Source of the DNA: a phage
Sequence record: PZ445449.1
Reading direction: 5' to 3' (one strand)
DNA length: 64,000 nucleotides
In this document: positions 27,135-60,959 of the stretch, one piece after another
How the letters are laid out: every line of letters starts with the position of its first letter
Position numbering within the stretch: the first letter of the stretch is position 1
Notes under the pieces: model-generated
Database searches by the model: none
Told to the model about the DNA's origin: nothing
What the model saw: the letters and a program-made list of their open reading frames with translations, nothing else
Translations under genes and position numbers: made by a program

Positions 27135-28340
27135 ATGATTTTCATCTACGAACACTTCAAAACTCGTAAAGAAGCACGCGACCGCCGTGCAGAACTTGAG
27201 AAGAAGGGTTTCACATGTGCCATTGAGAAAGGCGACACAACCTGGACACTGGCAGTTGGTGCCCCAGAGTTGTTCGATCCTGACCGTGACAGCGTCTGCT
27301 ACACCCGTGAGGATTTTGAAACCCGTGAAGAGGCCCGTCTATTTCGATATGGGCTGGAAGATAATGGTAAGTACGCCATGATCTTAGACTTAGGCGAAGG
27401 TTCCGTTAAACGTTGGGGCGTGGTATACCCACTGTGTGTTGTTCACGGTGTGGGGTTCACTGGGGTGGCAATCAAGTCAGAAGAACCTTTAGTAGAAGTC
27501 AAAGACCCGGTGCTGGAGGTGGTGAGCAGTGTGTCTCAGCAACAGACTCGAAGCATCGAGCCTTTAGTAGTTATTTGTGGGGAACTCCTCCAGATCACCT
27601 GCAACGAAGGCATTTTTGAAATTCGCCGCAGCGAAAGTGAGGAAGTTTACCAGAAAGTCTTCGACCATATCTCTGTTCAGGAATATGATGAGGCAATTGG
27701 TGAAATCCTTGTCTGGCTGGAACGCAAGAATGAGTTCACCACACTTGCAGACAACCTGATCATGAAAGATGGTAAGCTCTACTACTACGGTGTAGAGATG
27801 CGATCCACCATTGCAAAGAAAATTGAGAAAGACTATGCAGACGGAACACTGGATGACCGCTATGTGAAATTCCTCGTTCGCCTGCTACGCAATCCTTCTG
27901 CAAAATCTGTAAACATGCTCTACGATTTTATGCAGGCCAACGATATCCAGATTGCAGAAGATGGTCGAATCATTTGCTACAAAGGGGTTCAGTTTAACGG
28001 CAGCAAGTGGGTGGATTGGCACAGTGGTAAAGTTCCACAATACCAGGGTGCTTTTGTATCCATGCCTCGTAACTTTGTAGAGGATGATCCTGAAGCTGCG
28101 TGCTCCTATGGCTTACACTGCGCCAGCAAGGAGTATGCAAAGAGCTACGGCACTGTAATGACTGTCATGGTTGACCCTGCAGATGTGGTTAGTGTGCCAT
28201 ACCAACACAATAGCGCTAAGTGCCGTGCATGCCGCTATGAGATTGTGGTAGCTCCGGAAGCACGCAAGGACGGAGACCCGATTGAATACGTGGTTGACCG
28301 AGACGGTAACACTATCGACATTCTTTACGAGGAGGCGTAA
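27135..28340 (+). CDS. hypothetical protein with duplicated N-terminal motif
   Basis: ATG at 27135 with AAGGAG RBS; repeated F-x-TR-x-EAR ... G segments near N-terminus; no recognisable catalytic motif. Confidence 0.55.
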   Translation: MIFIYEHFKTRKEARDRRAELEKKGFTCAIEKGDTTWTLAVGAPELFDPDRDSVCYTREDFETREEARLFRYGLEDNGKYAMILDLGEGSVKRWGVVYPLCVVHGVGFTGVAIKSEEPLVEVKDPVLEVVSSVSQQQTRSIEPLVVICGELLQITCNEGIFEIRRSESEEVYQKVFDHISVQEYDEAIGEILVWLERKNEFTTLADNLIMKDGKLYYYGVEMRSTIAKKIEKDYADGTLDDRYVKFLVRLLRNPSAKSVNMLYDFMQANDIQIAEDGRIICYKGVQFNGSKWVDWHSGKVPQYQGAFVSMPRNFVEDDPEAACSYGLHCASKEYAKSYGTVMTVMVDPADVVSVPYQHNSAKCRACRYEIVVAPEARKDGDPIEYVVDRDGNTIDILYEEA

Positions 28341-29710
28341 TGGAAAAAGGGCAGTATGATGTAGGCACAGATGCTGCCCTTGTTGCAATCATGAGCGGTG
28401 AGAATGTCTTCGTTTCAGGACCTGCAGGTTGTGGGAAGACGTATCTCATCAACATGATCCAGTCAATGTATGGAGACTCTTGCATAACGGTTGCCCCGAC
28501 AGGGGTAGCCGCTTTAAACGTTAATGGAGCAACAGCACACCGAACCTTCGATCTTGCAGCAGGTGTGAGCATGGAGTCAGACTGGACCGCAATAAGGGCA
28601 AAAACAGCAAAGCCTTTGAAAAGCAAGGCATTTACCATCCTAATTATCGATGAAATCTCTATGATCCGTGCTGATAAGTTTATAGAGATGGATAGGAAAC
28701 TCCGCTTCCTTCGAAAAAATGACAAACCTTTCGGAGGCATACAGGTCATATTGTTTGGCGATTTTTACCAGGCACCTCCTGTTGTCTCTTCTATGGAGAA
28801 GGAAGCCTACTTCAACTTCTACCATACGGACCTGTGTTGCTATACCGAATCTTGGAAAGAGCTTGACCTCCACAACATAGCCCTAATAGATCAGTTCCGA
28901 CAGGAGTCTATTCGATTTGCTACAATGCTCAACTGTGTTCGTGAGGGTCGTCGCATAAAAGAGGTTGTAGCAGAACTTAATGCTCGCTGTTACAAAGGAG
29001 GTGTACCAACAGACGCTCTCACAATTTGCGCCACCAACAAACAAGCAGAGGAAGTGAACAGAAGGTTCTATGATGCCATCAACGCCCCAGAGAAGGTATA
29101 CACTGGTGAAATGAAGGGTAAGTTTCCCTCCACCCTACCAGTTGAGCAGGAGATGAAGTTGAAAATTGGCATGAAAGTTATGATAACCGCCAACGATGTT
29201 GACCCGACGCACAAAGTACCTTATTATGTTAACGGAACACGTGCTACAATTGTTAAATTTAAGAACAAGGCGGTGGTGGTAGAGCTTGAAGATGGAACAC
29301 AGGTTGACATAGAGCAGAGGTTGTGGGAGAATAACGAGTATAAGCCATCTCAGAGATACAACATTGCAGAAAGGAAGATGGAGAAGTTTATAGAGAGGGT
29401 AGTGATTGGGTCATACAAGCAACTTCCTCTGAAATCTGGGTACGCCGTAACATCTCATAAAAGTCAAGGACTTACACTAGATTGTTACAACCTAGACCTT
29501 GGAAAGAACGGAGCTTTCTCTCCTGGGATGACGTATGTCGCTTTGAGTAGAGTTAAGACAATACAAGGAATAAACTTGTTGCGTCCACTAAGAGAGGTTG
29601 ACATTATTGTTGACCCGCGAGTCGTAGAGTTTTACAATACAACATTCCCTGACTTAGACAAAATTGTCAGGAAAGATTTTGAAACCAGAGCAGAAGAGGG
29701 GGACGTATGA
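28340..29710 (+). CDS. PIF1/Dda-like SF1B DNA helicase
   Basis: 456 aa; Walker A GPAGCGKT, TVAPTGVAA...TAHRTF, Walker B IIDEISM, C-terminal VTSHKSQGLT...TYVALSR. Confidence 0.8.
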   Translation: MEKGQYDVGTDAALVAIMSGENVFVSGPAGCGKTYLINMIQSMYGDSCITVAPTGVAALNVNGATAHRTFDLAAGVSMESDWTAIRAKTAKPLKSKAFTILIIDEISMIRADKFIEMDRKLRFLRKNDKPFGGIQVILFGDFYQAPPVVSSMEKEAYFNFYHTDLCCYTESWKELDLHNIALIDQFRQESIRFATMLNCVREGRRIKEVVAELNARCYKGGVPTDALTICATNKQAEEVNRRFYDAINAPEKVYTGEMKGKFPSTLPVEQEMKLKIGMKVMITANDVDPTHKVPYYVNGTRATIVKFKNKAVVVELEDGTQVDIEQRLWENNEYKPSQRYNIAERKMEKFIERVVIGSYKQLPLKSGYAVTSHKSQGLTLDCYNLDLGKNGAFSPGMTYVALSRVKTIQGINLLRPLREVDIIVDPRVVEFYNTTFPDLDKIVRKDFETRAEEGDV

Positions 29711-32114: not shown

Positions 32115-32778
32115 CTGGAGCAAGTATTTCACCTATCGCGACGGCAAACTGTTCTGGGCGTATACCGCAAAAGCCGGAAGGGGCAGGATCATACATTACG
32201 CAGGTGAGGAGGCCACAGGCACAGATAAAGATGGCTATAGAGTAATAAATGTGTCAGGTGTTGGGAGTGTTCGTAGGCATAGAATAATTTGGGAGATGCA
32301 TTACGGAGAGATACCTGAAGGTCTTGTTGTGCGGCACAAGAACGACATGGCAGGGGATGATAGGATAGAGAACTTAGTCCTAGGGACACAGGGTGATAAT
32401 GCACGAGACATGATCTACAGTGACAAGCTGAACATTAATAATACCTCAGGGTATCGTGGCGTGCGCTATCATAGAGGTATAAAAAGATGGACTGCATCTG
32501 CTGGAGACATATACTTAGGGTGTTTTAAGACAAAAGAGGATGCAATTGCATGCAGAAAGTTATGGGAGAAGGGAAAATTCGTCCCGCAAGAATTAGATGT
32601 TAGAAACACTAGCGGTGTGACAGGGGTGTTCTATGTGCCGAGCTCTGGAAGGTGGAGAGTCCGAGTGCAAAGCGGCAAAAAGAGAAAGAGCTATGGCACT
32701 TACAACACTTTAGAAGAAGCAAAAGCTGTAAGGGATAAAGTGATGAAAGATATTGAGGAGTTTAAAGATGGGGAATAA
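32107..32778 (+). CDS. HNH homing endonuclease with AP2-type DNA-binding repeats
   Basis: 223 aa; HNH_3-type segment HRIIWEMHYGEIPEGLVVRHKNDMAGDDRIENL; two SGYRGV / SGVTGV ... W AP2-like repeats. Confidence 0.7.
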   Translation: MVDWSKYFTYRDGKLFWAYTAKAGRGRIIHYAGEEATGTDKDGYRVINVSGVGSVRRHRIIWEMHYGEIPEGLVVRHKNDMAGDDRIENLVLGTQGDNARDMIYSDKLNINNTSGYRGVRYHRGIKRWTASAGDIYLGCFKTKEDAIACRKLWEKGKFVPQELDVRNTSGVTGVFYVPSSGRWRVRVQSGKKRKSYGTYNTLEEAKAVRDKVMKDIEEFKDGE

Positions 32779-34846
32779 GTTTATACCCTCTGCATATAAC
32801 CGCTATGGAGAACCTAACCCAGTTGCAACAAGATACAAAAGCGGAGGTAGTATGAAACGAGACTATCGAGATGAAAAAGAGGTTGAAACCGTAGAGACCG
32901 TTTTAGAAAATACTAAAATTGTCCCTGTCCCACAACAAAATATCGGTCTAATGGCTGCACAATATTTTGGTGTGCGATCAGCATTGTCCCAAGAAGATGG
33001 TGTGACAGTGACTGCAACATATTTCCCATATTACGACCGCTACGGAAATCTGTCCGGTTTCAAAAAGCGTGATTGGTCTAAGCCAAAAGAGCAGAAAGGG
33101 CACTGGTCTGTGGTAGGCATAGTAAAGGCTAACTCCCAGATGTTTGGTCAAAAGCTGTGTGCATCTTCCAACAACCGTAAGCAGATTAACGTTTGTGAGG
33201 GAGAAGGTGATGTTATTGCAGCATGGCAGGCTGCATATCAGATACAAGTAAAAGGGATTCTCACCAACGCTAAAGCCCCGGCAAAGGTGAAGCAGTGGGC
33301 TAAAGAGGTCCAGGACGGAATCGATGCAGTTATCAACGGTGGTGATCTGGCAGGAAAACCCTGCCTGCCTTTTGTTGGAATTAACTGTGGATGTGCAAAC
33401 GCAGTAGATACTTTTGCAAACAATGAGAAGTTTATCCGTAGCTATGGAACAGTTGTGCTGGCAATGGATAACGATGCAGCTAACGAGGTAGAGAAGCAAA
33501 AACACGTCATTAAAGGTGTTGAGGCCACGCACAATATCGCAGCATTTTTGATGGCTGATAACGTTTACCACGTAGAATACCCTGGTGAAGTAAATGACCC
33601 TGACGGTGTAAAAGATATCCGAGACATGCTGAAGGCTAAAAAGCTGGAAGATATTGTCAACATGTTCCGGCACCCTGTTAAATATGTGCCTGATGCTGTG
33701 TCGGATTTAGAAGACTTCTCTATCGAGTCTTTGCGGAAAAAGACTTCCAACGGGGTAGATATCAGTGCAGAGTTCCCAAAACTGCAAAAAATGCTAAAAG
33801 GCTTGCACAAAGGGACACTTGTAATGCTTACAGGTCCATCAGGCGGCGGTAAAACAACCGTGGCTAAAAAACTGGAACACTGTATTGCAAGATACCTAAT
33901 GGACCCGACATGCCCGAAGGCCGATGACTATGAAGAGGATGATCGTCTATGCATGATCCATCTTGAGGAGGATCCAGAGGAAGCAATTAACTCCTTGTAT
34001 GCAAACCAGTTAGGGTTTGATGTTAAAGAGTTTGTTGAAGATCCTAGCCAGTTTTTAACTGATCAAGAACACGCAGAGATTCACCAATCATGGGCAAAAG
34101 CTGGAAAAATCAAAGTGTTCAAACATTTCGGGTCTATTCCGGTGGACGAGTTGATTACCAAGCTTAAGCAAATGGTTTGCCTGTACCATTGTCGTTATAT
34201 TGTGCTGGATCACCTGTCCATGGTAATTTCAGGGCTTAATGTTAAGGATGAGCGAAAAGAACTGGACATGGCTATGACCCAACTGGCTGCGTTTTGTAAG
34301 CAGTTTAACGTGTTTATCTTGGTGATCGCTCACCTCAAACGTACAGAGATTGTGCCCCCTAAGGACAAGGATGGTAACCCATTACCTTTCTGGTATCCTG
34401 TGCGAAAAGAGAATTTGCGAGGATCGGCTGGGCTTGAACAGTTGAGTTGGGTAGTCATAGGTGTCGAGGCCGAAGAAATGGTGGATCGTTCTCGTGGACG
34501 TGTCCGTCTGGTAGGTCTTAAAAACCGTCCAGCAAAAACTTTAGGTATTGCTGACACTTTAGTTATGGATCCGCATACAGGTAAGTTCCACGATGCCAGT
34601 AATTGGTACTGGGACAAAGAAATGCAGATGTTCACAGACGGAGAAGGTGGGGAGGTTGTTTGGAGACCTCAGGCTATGTTTGAGGATCAGGAGCATGCAG
34701 TTGTAGAAACACCTATGGGCAAGGTTGTGGCTGATAAGGTTGTAACACCCACTGTCAAGCCTATTGACACGCAGGAAGACCTCCAATACGATGATCCATC
34801 CTCTGATCCGGTCCCTGGTTTTGAGGATGATGAAACACCTTTTTAA
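32768..34846 (+). CDS. bifunctional DNA primase-helicase (T7 gp4-like)
   Basis: TOPRIM-like VCEGEGDVIAAW in N-terminal half; DnaB-family Walker A LTGPSGGGKTT and H4-like region in C-terminal half; ATG 32768 with AGGAG RBS. Confidence 0.75.
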   Translation: MGNKFIPSAYNRYGEPNPVATRYKSGGSMKRDYRDEKEVETVETVLENTKIVPVPQQNIGLMAAQYFGVRSALSQEDGVTVTATYFPYYDRYGNLSGFKKRDWSKPKEQKGHWSVVGIVKANSQMFGQKLCASSNNRKQINVCEGEGDVIAAWQAAYQIQVKGILTNAKAPAKVKQWAKEVQDGIDAVINGGDLAGKPCLPFVGINCGCANAVDTFANNEKFIRSYGTVVLAMDNDAANEVEKQKHVIKGVEATHNIAAFLMADNVYHVEYPGEVNDPDGVKDIRDMLKAKKLEDIVNMFRHPVKYVPDAVSDLEDFSIESLRKKTSNGVDISAEFPKLQKMLKGLHKGTLVMLTGPSGGGKTTVAKKLEHCIARYLMDPTCPKADDYEEDDRLCMIHLEEDPEEAINSLYANQLGFDVKEFVEDPSQFLTDQEHAEIHQSWAKAGKIKVFKHFGSIPVDELITKLKQMVCLYHCRYIVLDHLSMVISGLNVKDERKELDMAMTQLAAFCKQFNVFILVIAHLKRTEIVPPKDKDGNPLPFWYPVRKENLRGSAGLEQLSWVVIGVEAEEMVDRSRGRVRLVGLKNRPAKTLGIADTLVMDPHTGKFHDASNWYWDKEMQMFTDGEGGEVVWRPQAMFEDQEHAVVETPMGKVVADKVVTPTVKPIDTQEDLQYDDPSSDPVPGFEDDETPF

Positions 34847-34904: not shown

Positions 34905-37328
34905 ATGAGCATGTGGTCGTTCGATTTTGAGTCATCCGGTTTGCTGGAAGACCCAGATCTTTATTATCACTGCGGTCTGTTTAAAGAGCTGAATAAGAAC
35001 CGTTTTATGCTGTTCCTTCCTCTAAATGACCGCACACACTACTCCGAGGAGGATATAGAAAAGGCTAAGAACTTCATTCTGGCAAAGAAAACTCTTTATA
35101 AAGATTTTGAAGTTCGCATAGCAGATTTTTCGGAGTTGGAAGGTTGGCTTACAGGCAATTCTGACTGGTCACCAACAGCTTTGAACTGCCATAACTGCTA
35201 CAGTTATGACTTTATGCTGATGGAAAGATTATCCGGTATTCATTTTGATATGTTCCGTGATCCTAAATGCATGGGAACTATCAACGACCACCAGGTTAAC
35301 CTGTTTGATACGTTGGCGATGAGCCGAATCTTGTGGCCTGATCGCCCTTTACCAAAAGGTTGTCCGGACTCTGTATTCAACCCGGTTACTAAGAAAATGC
35401 AGCCTGTTGGTCCTCACGGCCTTATGGCATGGGGCTACGCCCTTGGTAACCAGAAAGTTCAAATTGATGACTGGCGCGATCTTCCGTTGTGGAAGTATGT
35501 GGATCGTGTATTCGAGGACGTTATCATCCAGGAGCTGCTCTGGAAAGAGCTGGTAGCGGAATCAAAAGGTGTATTCTACGGCAAATCTGACATGCAGAAC
35601 TTTATGTACGATCCAGCCAAAGAGAAGCCGAAAGGGTTCAAGAAAATCACCTGGAAGAACGCATTACGCCGAGGCATGCTGCAGCACTTCCTGATGGAGC
35701 TGCAGGCCCGTCAGGGTGTGTATTTCGACATAGATGGGGCTATTGCTTTACGTGACCGTTGCGATGCGTGGATGAAAGAGATCGCTGATCGTGTTGAACC
35801 TCAACTTCCTTTAAAAGAGTTGTCAATGTCTCAGCGGCCAAAGTTCCCTGAAAAGCCGTTTAACCAAGATGGGACAATCTCCAATAATGGTTGGAAATGG
35901 TTAAAAGATAAGCTTGGCTATCCTGTAGACATGAGCGCTTTAGAATTCAAAGCCCCGCCTAAGCGAGCATTTACCTCCACAGGAGATGTCAGCAAGATGG
36001 GGATAAAATGGTGTGAAGAGATGGGCTGCAAAGACCCAGACAAGATGGCTGATTTCTTGAGAGGTTATATTAAGGGCACCTCCACACCACAACCTTTACC
36101 TAAAGAGCTGATGGATCAGGCAATAAGTGATCTGCAGCAGAAGCGAATGCCTGACTGCAAGATACCTATGAAAATCAGCAATCAGGACGACATTAAGCGA
36201 TACCTGATCAGTGCTGGTTGGCTTCCGACAATGTGGAGAACTAAGGATGTAACTAAGGACAGCAAGAAGAAAGCTCTACCTGATGCAGATGTTGATGCAC
36301 GAGTATATGCATACATGGACGAGCTTTTAGAGTCAGAGTATTGTGACCTAATTATCAACTTCTGGAACAAAACTGATGCTAAGTTTCAGACAACAGTGCA
36401 CAAGTTCCGAAGCTTTCCTAACTCCGAAAGGATTAAAAAGGAAGTGTTCGGGAAAATACGCAGAAAAGCCAGGGCACTTATTACTTCTCCGCAACTGAAA
36501 GATACGTTTGGACACCTATGTCCGAATCTTGAAAAATTGAACGGAGAGATGGCTAAAGATATCGTCTTGTGGTTATCATTGCGAAACCGCAGATCGGTCC
36601 TTGATCCAATCAAGGAGGATAAGGTTGATACTGGTCTTCTTAATCACCCACGTTTGAAGATTGACCATAAGCTTCCTGCTAAAAGCTCTGGATTAACAAA
36701 CACTTCCCGACAGAAACACAGTATTTGTGCAAACATGCCTAAACCATCTCCTAAAGTGGTTATGGGTAAAGAGATGCGTAGCTTGTGGGGTGTTCCTCCT
36801 GGATACTTTGAGATCGGTATTGACGGGTCCAACTTAGAGCAGCTTATCGGGGCTTGGGGTGCCTTTGAGTTCGACAACGGCTTGTACTATGATGTTGTAA
36901 GTAACGGGGACGCACACCAAAACAATGCTGAGGCATATACAAAAGTAGCAGGCAGAGAGGTGTCTCGTAACGACGGTAAACCTATCACGTATGGGGTTAT
37001 GTACGGGGCACAAAAAGATAAAGTTGCAGATATGCTGGATATCTCCCCAGAGTTGGGGCAAAGGGTGATCGATGCACTTTGGGATGCCAACCCCGGTCTT
37101 AAGGGGCGCAAAGAGGATCTGGAGAAATTCTGGGAAGCAACAGGTAAGAAGTTTATCTACTCTTTTGATGGTCATGCTATCTGGACCCGATCTAAACACT
37201 CTTTACTTAATGCATACCAACAAAATGGTGGTGCATCGCTGTGTGACTTAGTTGGGATACTCATGCACCACCAAATGGTGAAGCGTGGGTGGTACGATGA
37301 AGGTGTCCGTCGTATTATCTATTACCAT
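34905..37328 (+). CDS. DNA polymerase family A, exon 1 (exonuclease and polymerase motifs A and B)
   Basis: Exo I FDFESSG; motif A IDGSNLEQL; motif B KPITYGVMYGAQ; ORF ends ...RIIYYH then K-stop exactly where motif C (HDE) is expected. Confidence 0.75.
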
Positions 37329-38170
37329 AAATAACATTGTGGCTTCGTGCAGTGATGCACGTCGAAAACCTCTTTAATTGACGGGAAGGCTAAGTTGACT
37401 TTTACACCTAAACATGGTAAAAGCTCAATATGCTAATCCGCAGCGAAGACTAAAGGGGTGTAGTTAAAATGGCTAGATCAGCTGATTATCACGGATATAC
37501 CGTGTTTGATGATGGAACAATACCTTTATCGAAACGTGATCATACAACAATGTTTTGTTTTGATAATGGTCGAGGTTACCTTTGCGTAACCATGCTCATT
37601 GAGGGGAAGCAGTGCACAAAAGGTGTCCACCACTTGGTTGCTGAATGCTTTGTATCAAACCCTGATCCTGAAAAGCTCACATGGGTGAACCATAAGGACG
37701 GAAACAAGTACAACAATGCATACTGGAACCTTGAATGGACCACCCCTGGTGGAAATATCAAACACGCCTATGATAATGACCTCAGAGTAAGGCCAGTTGG
37801 TGAGTATAATGCCAACGCTGTGCTGACCGAGGATGAGGTAATGGAGATTTGTGAACTGTTGCAGAGTGGTCTACGACAATGGGAGATTAGGGATCTTGGG
37901 TATCCTTATGAGACGGTCAGAGCCATAAAGCAAAGAAGACAGTGGAAACATATCTCTAAAAACTACACCTGGTAGTAACGTTCAGAGACTATCGAAAGCA
38001 TAGCTCCAACATAGTTTGGTGTGAAGAAGCGAGTAGAGTAGGCCAGCAAGTGCGGTCGAAATGAGAGGTGCCTTGGTAACAAGGTAGTGAGATAGTCCGA
38101 TCCATACAGGAAACCGTATGGCTGTGCACGTAATGGTGCGGGGTAGCTTAACGACCTACCTGAACTATTG
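37329..38170 (+). mobile_element. candidate group I intron carrying an HNH homing endonuclease gene, inserted in the DNA polymerase gene
   Basis: 842-nt insertion between ...YYH (last exon-1 nt is T) and DEYQLQV...; last inserted nt is G; contains free-standing HNH ORF 37469-37975. Confidence 0.55.
37469..37975 (+). CDS. HNH homing endonuclease (insertion-encoded)
   Basis: 168 aa; HNH_3 motif VNHKDGNKYNNAYWNLEWTT; AAAGGGG RBS. Confidence 0.7.
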   Translation: MARSADYHGYTVFDDGTIPLSKRDHTTMFCFDNGRGYLCVTMLIEGKQCTKGVHHLVAECFVSNPDPEKLTWVNHKDGNKYNNAYWNLEWTTPGGNIKHAYDNDLRVRPVGEYNANAVLTEDEVMEICELLQSGLRQWEIRDLGYPYETVRAIKQRRQWKHISKNYTW

Positions 38171-52243: not shown

Positions 52244-52299
52244 TTGCAATAACCTAAAAACCTGCTATATTAAAACTCAAGGGGCAAGACGTTTGCCCC
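52244..52299 (+). promoter_or_regulatory. promoter plus 5'-UTR hairpin cassette
   Basis: TTGCAA - 16 nt - TATATT, then hairpin GGGGCAA-gacgt-TTGCCCC, then CACACAAAACAAAGAGG. Confidence 0.55.
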
Positions 52300-57631: not shown

Positions 57632-57660
57632 TTGACAGGGATCGGCAGTTTTGCTATATT
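57632..57660 (+). promoter_or_regulatory. sigma70-type promoter
   Basis: TTGACA - 17 nt - TATATT. Confidence 0.55.
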
Positions 57661-57709: not shown

Positions 57710-58129
57710 ATGAACATTAAATCTAATAATCCGGCATATAGCTTTGATAACGCTTTTTGTCACGGTCCGGCGGCGAAAGGATTCGAAATCGATGGTAAAC
57801 TAATTATTGTCAATGTTGACGGGGAAGAGGTTGCAGTATATCCGGTGGCAGACGTAAAAAGCCGTTTACAATGCCGCATGGATGTTACCGCCTATCAGCT
57901 TGATCCGGTCCGCATAGTTGCCCTGGTCCTGGAAGAAGAAATTAAAGCCATGCACCATAGCAACAGATTTATTGGTGACGCGCAGGATAATATGAAAGTA
58001 TGCCGCCATAAAGTTAATAAAGTGCTTAAAGAGTACGGCTATAAAGATCTTATGATCAAACGTGAGGAAAAATTCCGCTACCGTAACGACCTGGCAAATC
58101 GGATTTTTGAAATATACGAATCATTATAA
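57710..58129 (+). CDS. hypothetical protein (last gene of rightward early block)
   Basis: 139 aa; TAAGAGG RBS. Confidence 0.5.
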   Translation: MNIKSNNPAYSFDNAFCHGPAAKGFEIDGKLIIVNVDGEEVAVYPVADVKSRLQCRMDVTAYQLDPVRIVALVLEEEIKAMHHSNRFIGDAQDNMKVCRHKVNKVLKEYGYKDLMIKREEKFRYRNDLANRIFEIYESL

Positions 58130-58147
58130 TTTTTTAACTGAATTATC

Positions 58148-58173
58148 AAGGGGCTTAGGCCCCTTTCTTTTTG
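58148..58173 (+). terminator. intrinsic terminator
   Basis: AAGGGGC-ttag-GCCCCTT followed by TCTTTTTG. Confidence 0.65.
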
Positions 58174-58179
58174 TCTGCT

Positions 58180-60620
58180 CTTCTCCTACCATAAACGGCC
58201 CTACCTGGCAAGTGGAATAATTGACGAGCCATCAATCCCACACACTGTACAAATATACATGTAAAATAACTATTGCATAACCTTTCATTGTGTGGTAGCA
58301 AGTCCATTTTTACCCGTTTTCTCTCCCAAAAGTGCACGTAATGCCGCTATTGCACAAATTTTAACCTGATGCACATCTCCAATATCTTGTCAACAACTAA
58401 AAATCTTTATAAGTCATACACTTACACAGCATCGAAAGCGTGTTCTACGCGAAAAATCGAGTATAACTATAGCCGCCAGATCTCAGAATTCACGTACGCA
58501 CGCCATTCTATAGCCTGCAAAGTATTTATTCCAACCACAGAATAACGGAATAGTCAATACCTGCATAAAATAATTATTCGTGTAAACTGCATAACATAAA
58601 TCAGCTCAGGTGTCAACATTTTTCGTAAACAGTCCGAAATTATCACGATGAGTTATCATAAACAGAGAAATCTTTAGTCGTCTAATGTTTACTGTACATT
58701 ACTATACTGACTGGAATCATTAGATGACTAAGAGAAAGATAAGAAATAATTAATAATGTAATTATTTTACCTGTAACAATAAGGCAACTATGCAAACGAA
58801 TGGCATGGCGCGACGGAGTCGCGACATAATATAAAAGCAGTAACCATCACCCCCGTGATAGTTTGTCTGCAATCTATTAATCAGATCATAGTTGCCTTGT
58901 ATTTAGTTAATCATGACATGATAAGCAAGGCAACTATAGATCTTCTAATAGTTGCCCTGCTTTTATATTATGTCATCTATTGTAAACAAGTTAATTATTA
59001 TCATGCAAACGAATGGCATGGCTTATCATCTCTGTATAAACAGTTTATGCGTGAACAGTGAGGCATGCAATAGTAAGGGCGGGAATAATGAGAGTGTAAA
59101 CGGTCAGGCATGTCAATTATGTCAATCGTGTCAGTTATGTCACCATTATGTCAGACAAGTTTTTCCCCTCTTTGTCAAGTGCTGCATGAAAAATTTACAA
59201 GCTTGTATGGTAGCATTTTTGCGGCCCTGTTTACATTCAGTAATGTATGTATAACCCTTGATGTGTGGGCGCTTAGACGTCTAGACGGTCAGAAGTCTGC
59301 AGGTCAATATCTAATCTATCGGCTGCTAACTATATCCCACACAAATAGTAATAAATATAATTGTTATATGCGTAAACAGTGACTCATGTTATCAATCCCT
59401 GTATGGATCGCCAGTGGTGCGCATAATGGGTATTATGTTAAATTGCCCGTAATGATAACAGTTCTCACAATGATAGGTATTCTCATTCATCCACACAAAA
59501 TAGGTTGCAAATGTTGTGCCACTGTGTGAACGGCCTGGCCTATTAATTTCTCTCACTGCCTCGATATTTGAGAATTGTTATAAGAATGAGAAGTATTCCC
59601 ATTCCGTCCGCCTGGCAGCGCTCCTGTAGGTCCTGCAAGGACTCTAGCTGAAAGCTAGACCCTTCGGGCCTCCCTGTAGGTCAGGTCAAAATCGTGGTAG
59701 AATTGGGCCTATTCAGATATTTCTGGCTGACTCTTCAGGTCTGTGTGGGAAAAGCCAACCTCTCCGGCGGGGCAGGGGGAGGTCAATTAAAAAATTTACG
59801 TGGTGTATGAAGCGCTCTTCAGGTAAGGCAGGTATTATGGGATGAAACCCTCTTCAGGCAATGATATTTGTGGGTGTGATATTTGCTGGAAAGCCAGATA
59901 TGACGGGACTCCCGGCGGGGCAGGGGTAGTACAGACAGGGAAAATATGGGGATGTAGTTGGGGAAATTGATCAGACAGGTAGAGTATGGAATATGTTACA
60001 AGTATGTTAAATATGGAGGGTGAATATCTGTAGGATTTGTGTGTAAAATCAAAGACTTAAGCGGTGTTGTGGTATTTTCTATAAATAATTCAAGTTTAAT
60101 AGGCAATATTTGTCTCTATCCGTTTTGTGTGGTAAACAGATTCAGATTAGATTGGTTTACAAGTGTATACATAATATACAAATTAAAGATACAAGAAACC
60201 CCCCCTCCCCCCTTCGGCTACCATTCACCTTTTCCTCTGACTGGTACTTAAACACTTATTCAGACTCTTCAGGTTATCACCCATATATCATATGGCAGTG
60301 ACTGGTGTCCTCCGGCCCCTCTTTCGTCACCCGTCCGCTTCGCCATGCTAATGCCATAGCCAATGGTTCGGTTGTTCACCCTGTTCACTCAGGTGTATCT
60401 CCATACCCCTTCAAACCGAAGAGAACAGAAAACCCGAATTACTCGGTAAAAGAAAAGAGAAGAACTTAATTTTATCAGGATAGGCAAGAATGTCAAGGCA
60501 TGACTGCTCACTAAACAAGCAAACAGTCATGTGTGGGAGGTAAGTGATTGTGGTGGTAGGAAATTTAGTTGAAAGATGTGTTATAGGTGCTCCCAGCACT
60601 TTAGCCGGGTAGCTAATTGT
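58180..60620. repeat. about 2.4 kb non-coding, repeat- and hairpin-dense region between convergent transcription units
   Basis: No convincing ORF; ATGCAAACGAATGGCATGGC x2; inverted GGCAACTAT/ATAGTTGCC arms; five TGTCA repeats 59111-59153; CCTGTAGGTC x2; CTCTTCAGG x4; CCGGCGGGGCAGGGG x2; C-rich tract at ~60199. Confidence 0.6.
59101..59156. repeat. iteron-like array of five TGTCA repeats at 9-11 bp spacing
   Basis: TGTCA starts at 59111, 59120, 59129, 59138, 59149. Confidence 0.6.
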
Positions 60621-60623
60621 GTG

Positions 60624-60839
60624 TCAGTCCAGTGGTTCATCACCTACTTCACTGAAATCAATGTTCATGGTCTCCTCCCAACCATCAATCTCAGCACCAG
60701 AGTAGAGATCTTTAGGACTTACTCCCAAAGCCTCAGCAACAGAGTCTATATTTAACACCTCTGGCAGGTATGATTCATCGAATTCAAGGTAAATCAGGCC
60801 ACGAGTGTTGTCAGCTCCACCAAATATTTCTATCTTCAT
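60624..60839 (-). CDS. hypothetical acidic small protein
   Basis: ATG at 60839 preceded by AGGAGA (track start 60905 is upstream alternative). Confidence 0.45.
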   Translation of the reverse strand: MKIEIFGGADNTRGLIYLEFDESYLPEVLNIDSVAEALGVSPKDLYSGAEIDGWEETMNIDFSEVGDEPLD

Positions 60840-60959
60840 GAAATCTCCTCTGGAAATGAGAATGTGAACAGGGTTTATATGTTCCAATGCACTGGAATTA
60901 TGCACGTTTGCCTCTTCAGGCCATGCTTTAGCATGAGGAACCTGTGTGGGCTCGGTGCT

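Follow-up and report, generated by a model that had tools for sequence, protein, structure and literature searches.

Why does a stretch of some 2.4 kb in a phage genome carry no genes? The question is raised by positions 58180 to 60620 of a 64,000-nucleotide stretch of phage DNA (sequence record PZ445449.1; “the window” hereafter means this whole stretch, all of which was analysed). An earlier reading made from the letters alone (the sequence-only reading) had proposed the locus as a candidate replication origin, genome terminus or noncoding RNA (ncRNA) locus. The region matches ∼120 GenBank phage records at 87–98% identity, nearly all of them assigned to Vequintavirus, and this similarity marks the source of the window as an rV5-like coliphage of that genus. 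As vequintaviruses are rV5-like Escherichia coli myoviruses with genomes of ∼137 kb, the small, compact phage genome originally supposed had to be corrected. Of the three candidates, the terminus is the one that fared well: we consider it very probable that these 2.4 kb are where the genome ends of a Vequintavirus meet (the concatemer junction).

The evidence that carries this answer is a segment homologous to the delimited terminal repeat of phage Gotham (MT682716):

59154–59612, no strand assigned: direct terminal repeat of 459 bp, present once in the window, identified by end-to-end alignment with the Gotham repeat_region.

Comparison with related phages, which the sequence-only reading had suggested, located both boundaries of the repeat: the two copies annotated in Gotham (positions 1–459 and 136567–137025) both align gaplessly to 59154–59612, with the left end of the alignment exactly at TGTCA/GACAAG and its right end exactly at CCGTCCGCC/TGGCAG (the slash marks the boundary). 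The Gotham announcement reported 459-bp terminal repeats and a single fixed packaging start, based on a region of two-fold coverage together with identical packaging starts; the two-fold block was lacking in the other three phages of that paper. A terminal redundancy of 458 bp was reported by Korf et al. for the vequintaviruses EdH4 and HdK5. Independent database records were opened at the same boundaries. Those of Aya and ECP2303 finish exactly at TGTCA (i.e., they open at 59154), that of YN3 opens at 59154, and those of bov11CS3 and bov25_3 open at 59612 (exact start in version 2 of the bov records). The record of Pr121LW ends ∼146 bp beyond its match to a palindrome described below, which places its end near 59153, although this placement is approximate. 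With homology to the terminal repeat and concordant record boundaries, the genome-terminus proposal holds. The repeat occurs only once in the window because the assembly is in circularised, or concatemer-junction, form. In the rV5 genome paper the same gap was drawn, without a function, as a grey “non-coding” box between two convergent transcription units; this box and the repeats of Gotham, EdH4 and HdK5 agree with the window in sequence, position and length, with nothing essential that differs, and rV5 has the same ORF163 and ORF164 neighbours on either side of the gap (the window is oriented opposite to the rV5 record).

Sequence variation respects the same limits. When nucleotide diversity (pi) was computed by block among 16 genomes, the repeat showed a pi of 0.055 with almost no indels, and diversity peaked precisely at both of its boundaries (pi = 0.32 on the left, 0.18 on the right). 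Both boundaries lie within short odd palindromes, TGTC-A-GACA (59149–59157) and GCC-T-GGC (59610–59616), which could reflect the geometry of terminase nicking.

The gene-free character of the 2.4-kb stretch was likewise upheld. Variable sites were counted by codon position in an alignment with 15 relatives, comprising 14 loci and the junction of Gotham. None of the 20 open reading frames (ORFs) of 36–100 amino acids (aa) in the region showed a third-codon-position bias, and most were interrupted among the relatives, whereas the flanking genes gave 5/3/48 and 14/7/49 variable sites at the three positions. A homology search for encoded proteins, the check on which the gene-free claim could have foundered, returned no match in Pfam or PHROG for the ten longest ORFs of the region. 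Positions 58155–60620 are noncoding. A tRNA/tmRNA scan found none, and a structured-RNA search with the Rfam 15 covariance models gave no match at the gathering score in the whole window, nor any at E ≤ 5 in 57900–60900.

Repeated sequences flank the terminal repeat on both sides:

59033–59110, plus strand: about five degenerate GTRAAYNNT units with a period of ∼15 bp, from the alignment and per-genome counts.
59111–59153, plus strand: array of five TGTCA with a 9-bp period, its last unit abutting the left repeat boundary, from Tandem Repeats Finder (TRF) and a motif count.
59613–59700, plus strand: hypervariable segment outside the right repeat boundary, from the alignment (pi = 0.18, mostly indels).
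59724–59930, plus strand: two composite units of the form CTCTTCAGG ... GTGTGGG ... AAAGCCA ... CCGGCGGGGCAGGGG, plus one extra CTCTTCAGG, from a repeat search.

The five TGTCA repeats stand where the sequence-only reading had seen them (59111, 59120, 59129, 59138 and 59149), but their spacing of 9, 9, 9 and 11 bp is shorter than the helical turn to which it had been likened. The array is far denser than expected (three cases of triple TGTCA with gaps of 3–7 nucleotides [nt] against 0.01 expected; TRF period of 9 with 4.7 copies). Relatives carry TGTCA units at a period of 9–10 bp, with 1–5 exact copies plus degenerate ones and differing spacers, while in all genomes examined the last TGTCA is unchanged and lies directly against the boundary. 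Copy number of the GTRAAYNNT unit varies among relatives from 1 to 8 or more, and the left flank as a whole (59037–59153; pi = 0.32) differs mostly by indels, with gaps in 292 of 319 alignment columns. A TGTCA array that varies in this way, and whose last unit lies at the boundary, belongs to the fast-evolving boundary arrays and does not represent conserved initiator sites. To the right of the repeat, two copies of CCTGTAGGTC (59623 and 59673) flank a 50-bp insertion for which most relatives have either nothing or a replacement. Beyond them the composite units are well conserved (pi = 0.06) and are candidate protein-recognition sites, for example for the small terminase subunit. Their component CTCTTCAGG occurs four times in the region (59731, 59815, 59850 and 60265) and once at 60912, always on the plus strand, with six copies in the whole 64 kb against 0.58 expected; CCGGCGGGGCAGGGG occurs at 59764 and 59912. 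The short arrays of four, two and two copies listed by the sequence-only reading could thus all be located. Read on the minus strand, a composite motif made of CCCACACAG and then CCTGAAGAG is found at 60912–60950 (upstream of the ORF163 homologue) and again within the noncoding region at 59731–59749. The five local copies of CCTGAAGAG all share this strand, a bias that points to a signal acting at the RNA level or in one direction.

Short-repeat arrays (SRL and SRR) were reportedly described beside the T7 terminal repeat by Dunn and Studier in 1983. A likeness to such arrays had been proposed for this region, and the arrangement fits, with arrays at 59033–59153 and a variable or repeated segment at 59613–59930. 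In both systems arrays of short imperfect repeats border a short noncoding terminal repeat (160 bp in T7) on the outside, a promoter (phiOR in T7; here the one at 60496–60469, described below) reads toward and across the junction from a distance of a few hundred base pairs, and packaging proceeds from a fixed site. In T7, Pac sits at the concatemer junction and has two parts, PacB, to which the small terminase subunit binds, and PacC, which the large subunit cuts; T7 replication can also start close to the right end, at the promoter phiOR. The two differ in that the present phage lacks its own RNA polymerase, and its promoter is therefore of the host sigma-70 type; in that genes on both sides are here transcribed toward the ends, whereas T7 is transcribed inward from its left end; and in size and morphology (a 137-kb myovirus against a 40-kb podovirus). 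A closer comparison is provided by KPP-1 (MT438396), which belongs to Mydovirus, another genus of the subfamily. Its 514-bp repeat was classed as T7-type by coverage and by PhageTerm, and it too occupies a gap with few genes, flanked by gene blocks that converge on it.

Taking T7-type phages as the model, we infer the following packaging scheme. Virion DNA would be linear, with 59154–59612 forming a 459-bp direct terminal repeat at each end, and the repeat would be single in replicating concatemers, as it is in the circularised assembly. Terminase, whose gene is located outside the 64-kb window, would recognise sequences flanking the junction, with the last, invariant TGTCA and the well-conserved composite units as alternative candidates for the recognition site. 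It would then cut at both repeat boundaries (TGTCA/GACAAG on the left and CCGCC/TGGCAG on the right), each within its short palindrome, and DNA synthesis would duplicate the repeat so that every packaged genome receives a copy. The hypervariable arrays to the left and the variable, repeated segment to the right may be counterparts of the T7 short-repeat arrays, which they resemble in layout and possibly in function. A compound palindrome (58823–58974) and a terminator at 58148 would halt transcription entering the end from either side, and the sigma-70 promoter at 60496–60469 may direct a noncoding transcript toward the repeat.

One part of the region, 60199–60623, is left unexplained by a genome terminus. 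It comprises the following features:

60469–60496, minus strand: near-consensus extended −10 sigma-70 promoter, TTGACA-16-TGaTAAAAT, facing the terminal repeat, from a promoter scan (11 of 12 matches plus TG).
60199–60465, minus strand: ∼265 bases past the promoter with hardly any variation, a candidate noncoding transcript, from conservation and the lack of a codon pattern.
60199–60212, minus strand: G6AG7 tract (C7TC6 on the plus strand), the sharp downstream edge of the conserved block, from a motif search.
60500–60530, minus strand: conserved inverted repeat with a 13-bp stem directly upstream of the −35 hexamer, from folding.
60589–60613, minus strand: hairpin 11–35 nt past the stop codon (60624) of the first leftward gene, the ORF163 homologue, from folding.

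Diversity in this block (pi = 0.014) is 3–6 times lower than in the flanking genes (0.037–0.08). Together with the variation among relatives given next, this is the pattern expected of a working promoter whose noncoding product is under constraint. More distant relatives were sought with the conserved-block pattern, which recovered two IMG/VR contigs and five loci from a metagenome scan, all of them vequintaviruses and none from a new genus (an IMG/VR scan with a 29-nt pattern internal to the repeat gave no match). In the divergent contigs the DNA upstream has diverged, while both hexamers, the TG and the next ∼260 bases are almost invariant; in contig L021 the promoter spacer has been rewritten, with 18 nt instead of 16, and hexamers and TG are retained. 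Similarity in these contigs stops abruptly at the G tract. The tract is the only instance of C≥5-N-C≥5 in the 64 kb, and G5-6AG5-7 is present in 22 of the 22 sequences that cover the position (metagenome contig L025 stops just before it), followed in most genomes by TTTCTTG. The inverted repeat at 60500–60530, which could be an operator or an end-of-operon hairpin, is kept in all sequences, divergent contigs included, and 60500–60700 folds on the minus strand with z = −4.0. The conserved block had no blastn match among 5,426 E. coli genomes, and a distant-mode blastn search against all phages returned Vequintavirus only. A likeness of CUGAAGAG to a hammerhead core was dropped, with no Rfam match and no GAAA partner. 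The ncRNA locus of the sequence-only reading finds no support where it had been placed, Rfam giving no match there. A different sub-block, 60199–60623, does look like a conserved, promoter-driven noncoding unit.

Could this block be a separate unit? From its promoter, host RNA polymerase may make an ncRNA of ∼260 nt that ends at the G6AG7 tract, with a trans-acting or structural role or as a primer or R-loop for a transcription-primed origin served by the phage's T7-like replisome. We regard this as possible but rather unlikely, and it would be compatible with a genome terminus. The near-consensus promoter, the depressed diversity and the near invariance of hexamers and transcribed part up to the G tract, against a changing spacer and upstream sequence, all favour it, as does the location of the few variable sites in the loops of small predicted hairpins. 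Yet the fold of the block is no more stable than those of shuffled sequences (minimum free energy [MFE] z = −1.1), it belongs to no Rfam family and no compensatory changes were seen. The T-run past the G tract is not retained in LL12, Mangalyan and L024, and small ORFs within the block are possible, variation there being too low for a test. A search for antisense targets of the putative RNA in the 64-kb window gave chance-level matches only.

The more specific version, in which 60199–60496 is a transcription-primed origin beside the genome end, seems unlikely. Host RNA polymerase arriving at the G tract would pause there or end transcription, owing to an R-loop or a hybrid G-quadruplex, and its RNA would serve as primer for the phage's T7-like replisome. 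The promoter has the orientation that this requires, with the G tract on the nascent RNA and the G-rich strand as the non-template strand. The window encodes a helicase with a DnaB_C domain (32753–34846), a PIF1-like helicase (28340–29710) and a family A polymerase (DNA_pol_A, 34905–37334; E = 1.5 × 10−6, below the Pfam cutoff). A gp4-type helicase and a family A polymerase, the components of a T7-like replisome, are hence found in the same genome, for which the rV5 paper can also be cited. A literature search found no paper on transcription or replication mapping in the genus.

Two known systems bear on this proposal, and such an origin would be the counterpart of both in a bacterial virus. 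T7 has its secondary origin phiOR at a promoter near the right end, and in human mitochondrial DNA (mtDNA) conserved sequence block 2 (CSB2) has the form GmAGn (G5-6AG7-8, the commonest variant being G6AG7) and terminates transcription to make replication primers. The arrangement of light-strand promoter (LSP) and CSB2 shares with the block a promoter followed by GmAGn on the non-template strand, length polymorphism and a T-run downstream, and both genomes are replicated by a T7-type helicase with a family A polymerase. The resemblance to mtDNA is one of form only, and the transcribing enzyme here would be E. coli RNA polymerase. Promoter and tract are ∼260 nt apart in the phage, compared with roughly 100 nt in mtDNA. 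KPP-1 offers little encouragement: on its minus strand a G-tract-rich stretch (2810–2915; G5, G5AAG6, G4, G6) is found in the interval from the 514-bp repeat to the convergent genes, and the weak extended −10 promoter noticed by eye ∼35 nt upstream of it reads away from the repeat, unlike that of the window.

Several points weigh against the region being a genome end. The duplication at this phage's own ends is extrapolated from relatives that are 90–95% identical in the region. T7 shares no sequence similarity with it, and the units and periods of the arrays differ. KPP-1 has no TGTCA array, and its DNA shows faint similarity to the window only inside the repeat, with no tblastx match between the flanks, so that cross-genus homology of the sub-elements is not demonstrable with this phage. 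PhageTerm, moreover, called four bovine vequintaviruses (the bov phages, sequenced from Nextera XT libraries) “circular permutated” and the vequintavirus BpE1AUH “headful (PAC-type)”.

These last calls raise the alternative of headful packaging from a pac site, in which the genome would have no fixed ends, being circularly permuted and terminally redundant, and the region would be a pac site or regulatory spacer. In phage P1, which packages by the headful mechanism, pac consists of clustered TGATCA/G hexamers around the cut, a Dam-methylated motif. The likeness is that several copies of a short motif cluster at a terminase cut site (a predicted one in the present case); the difference is that the present motif, TGTCA, occupies a single side and varies in copy number. 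PhageTerm verdicts within the subfamily conflict, with fixed repeats of 458–514 bp on the one hand and circularly permuted or headful genomes on the other, and library type likely explains the conflict. The permuted and headful verdicts are evidence against a fixed terminus, but weaker than the concordant boundaries: Gotham has a defined two-fold coverage block and one packaging start, EdH4 and HdK5 have a 458-bp redundancy, KPP-1 was called a T7-type direct terminal repeat both ways, and independent records open at identical bases, down to the exact start at 59612 in version 2 of the bov records. Headful packaging is thus improbable.

The origin put forward by the sequence-only reading was of the iteron type, in which TGTCA would be the initiator-binding iteron, AT-rich DNA the unwinding element, and inverted repeats would assist. 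Its architecture leans on a palindrome module to the left of the arrays:

58790–58809, plus strand: left copy of the 20-bp direct repeat ATGCAAACGAATGGCATGGC, which brackets the palindrome module.
58823–58974, no strand assigned: compound palindrome with an 18-bp perfect outer stem and nested GGCAACTAT dyads, from folding and a repeat search.
59003–59022, plus strand: right copy of the 20-bp direct repeat ATGCAAACGAATGGCATGGC, from a repeat search.

The nested inverted repeats described earlier are indeed present at 58888–58962, as ATAGTTGCCTTG/CAAGGCAACTAT (58888–58899 and 58926–58937) and AAGCAAGGCAACTAT/ATAGTTGCCCTGCTT (58923–58937 and 58948–58962). To these is added the perfect 18-bp outer pair (58823–58840 and 58957–58974), and the 20-bp direct repeat recurs 213 bp apart, as had been said. 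In a folding scan of sliding windows against dinucleotide shuffles, only this module and the hairpins after the ORF163 homologue stood out; 58765–59030 folds with −84.6 kcal/mol (z = −7.6), and the palindrome region reaches z-scores of −3 to −6 on both strands. Each strand of the palindrome reads as a stem-loop followed by CTGCTTTTATATT, a terminator scan placed a minus-strand terminator-like site at 58863–58842, and in Murica and Alma a plus-strand terminator is annotated at the homologous position. From these sequence features the palindrome appears to be a bidirectional terminator-like element. FV3, a viable phage, has exactly one copy of the 20-bp repeat and nothing of the intervening module; the palindrome is therefore dispensable, which argues against an essential role as origin or pac. 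Other relatives carry additions. Just after the palindrome (58974/58975) many have a 48-nt GC-rich hairpin insert (AGAAACACCCGAAGGGGTGACC...), and rV5, LL12 and phita32 have a 33-nt insert in its central loop (58918/58919), so that small hairpin cassettes seem to be gained and lost in the region.

What speaks for an iteron origin is that the TGTCA array is real and far above chance, that AT-rich DNA (35.6% GC) lies 350 bp or more leftward, that a strong palindrome is close by, and that GC skew changes sign at the region. The classic architecture nevertheless did not stand up, and we judge an origin of this type very improbable. The supposed iteron has a core of 5 bp and a period of 9 bp, with 1–5 exact copies and differing spacers among phages that are >90% identical (pi = 0.32), and its last unit falls on the terminal-repeat boundary. 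The palindrome module is missing from FV3. There is no adjoining initiator gene and no conserved ORF in 58155–60620, and the nearest gene (57710–58129) is itself absent in 6 of 16 genomes. The skew change matches the switch in transcription direction, as the rV5 authors had noted at this gap. A DnaA-box-like TCATCCACA seen by eye at 59486 was dropped, being unconserved in Gotham.

Least credible of all is that the segment encodes missed small proteins: 2–12 small ORFs are annotated here in some records (JLBYU08, Mangalyan and HMD-6) and those in 60269–60599 are unbroken in 12–14 of 15 relatives, but the annotated set changes between records, intactness inside 60199–60623 merely mirrors near-identity, and the codon-position counts, the disruption of most ORFs and the Pfam and PHROG results given above all tell against it.

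The surroundings of the genome-end region complete the description:

58148–58165, plus strand: intrinsic terminator at the end of the rightward gene block, past the ORF164 homologue, from a terminator scan (7-bp GC-rich stem, then TCTTTTTGTC).
58180–58780, no strand assigned: AT-rich noncoding spacer, from composition, unpreserved ORFs and the lack of codon bias.

The terminator at 58148–58165 is also annotated in Murica and Alma. With this terminator on one side (plus strand) and the stop codon at 60624 on the other (minus strand), the region sits between the end of the rightward block and the leftward genes, as originally described. The spacer has a pi of 0.099, and the GC content of this left part (35.6%) compares with 43.9% for the window. 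The plus-strand gene at 57710–58129 is the rV5 ORF164 homologue, and the minus-strand gene with its stop at 60624 is that of ORF163. The former encodes 139 aa, annotated in Murica as “Rel homology domain”, and shows a clear coding pattern where present (the 5/3/48 by codon position given above). It is missing together with its promoter (57632–57660) in 6 of 16 aligned genomes, and this last gene before the noncoding region is accessory. Throughout the window CCCACACA (TGTGTGGG on the other strand) is overrepresented (12 copies against 2.6 expected; e.g., at 52298, 56937, 58237, 59336, 60530 and 60943). It is mostly co-oriented with transcription, often after a promoter or 5′ hairpin and before a ribosome-binding site, so early transcripts may carry it as a CA-rich leader element.

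A genome terminus is already recorded for this genus in the literature and in GenBank, and to a specialist the core finding is ordinary. Published notes give the length of the repeat only; the fine anatomy, that is, the boundary arrays flanking the repeat, the terminator palindrome, which is dispensable, and the invariant unit running from promoter to G tract, is undescribed in them. For annotation, the “non-coding box” of rV5-like genomes should be labelled as the terminal-repeat or concatemer-junction region, and genomes should be opened at TGTCA/GACAAG. Arbitrary permutation is common among the ∼120 records, and in some of them spurious ORFs have been annotated in the region. Among GenBank records MG065635–MG065690, ∼18–19 entries named “Campylobacter phage” (host Campylobacter jejuni) are 88–98% identical to E. 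coli vequintaviruses across the region, and these are probably mislabelled or derived from contaminated or mixed lysates.

Phages of this genus are in wide use against E. coli O157, and the BASEL collection includes the genus. Knowledge of the cis-acting packaging region and of its dispensable parts (the palindrome module and array copy number) helps in the design of deletions, insertions and transducing particles. If it were true that the promoter-to-G-tract unit primes replication, it would link the origin mechanisms of phages and mitochondria.

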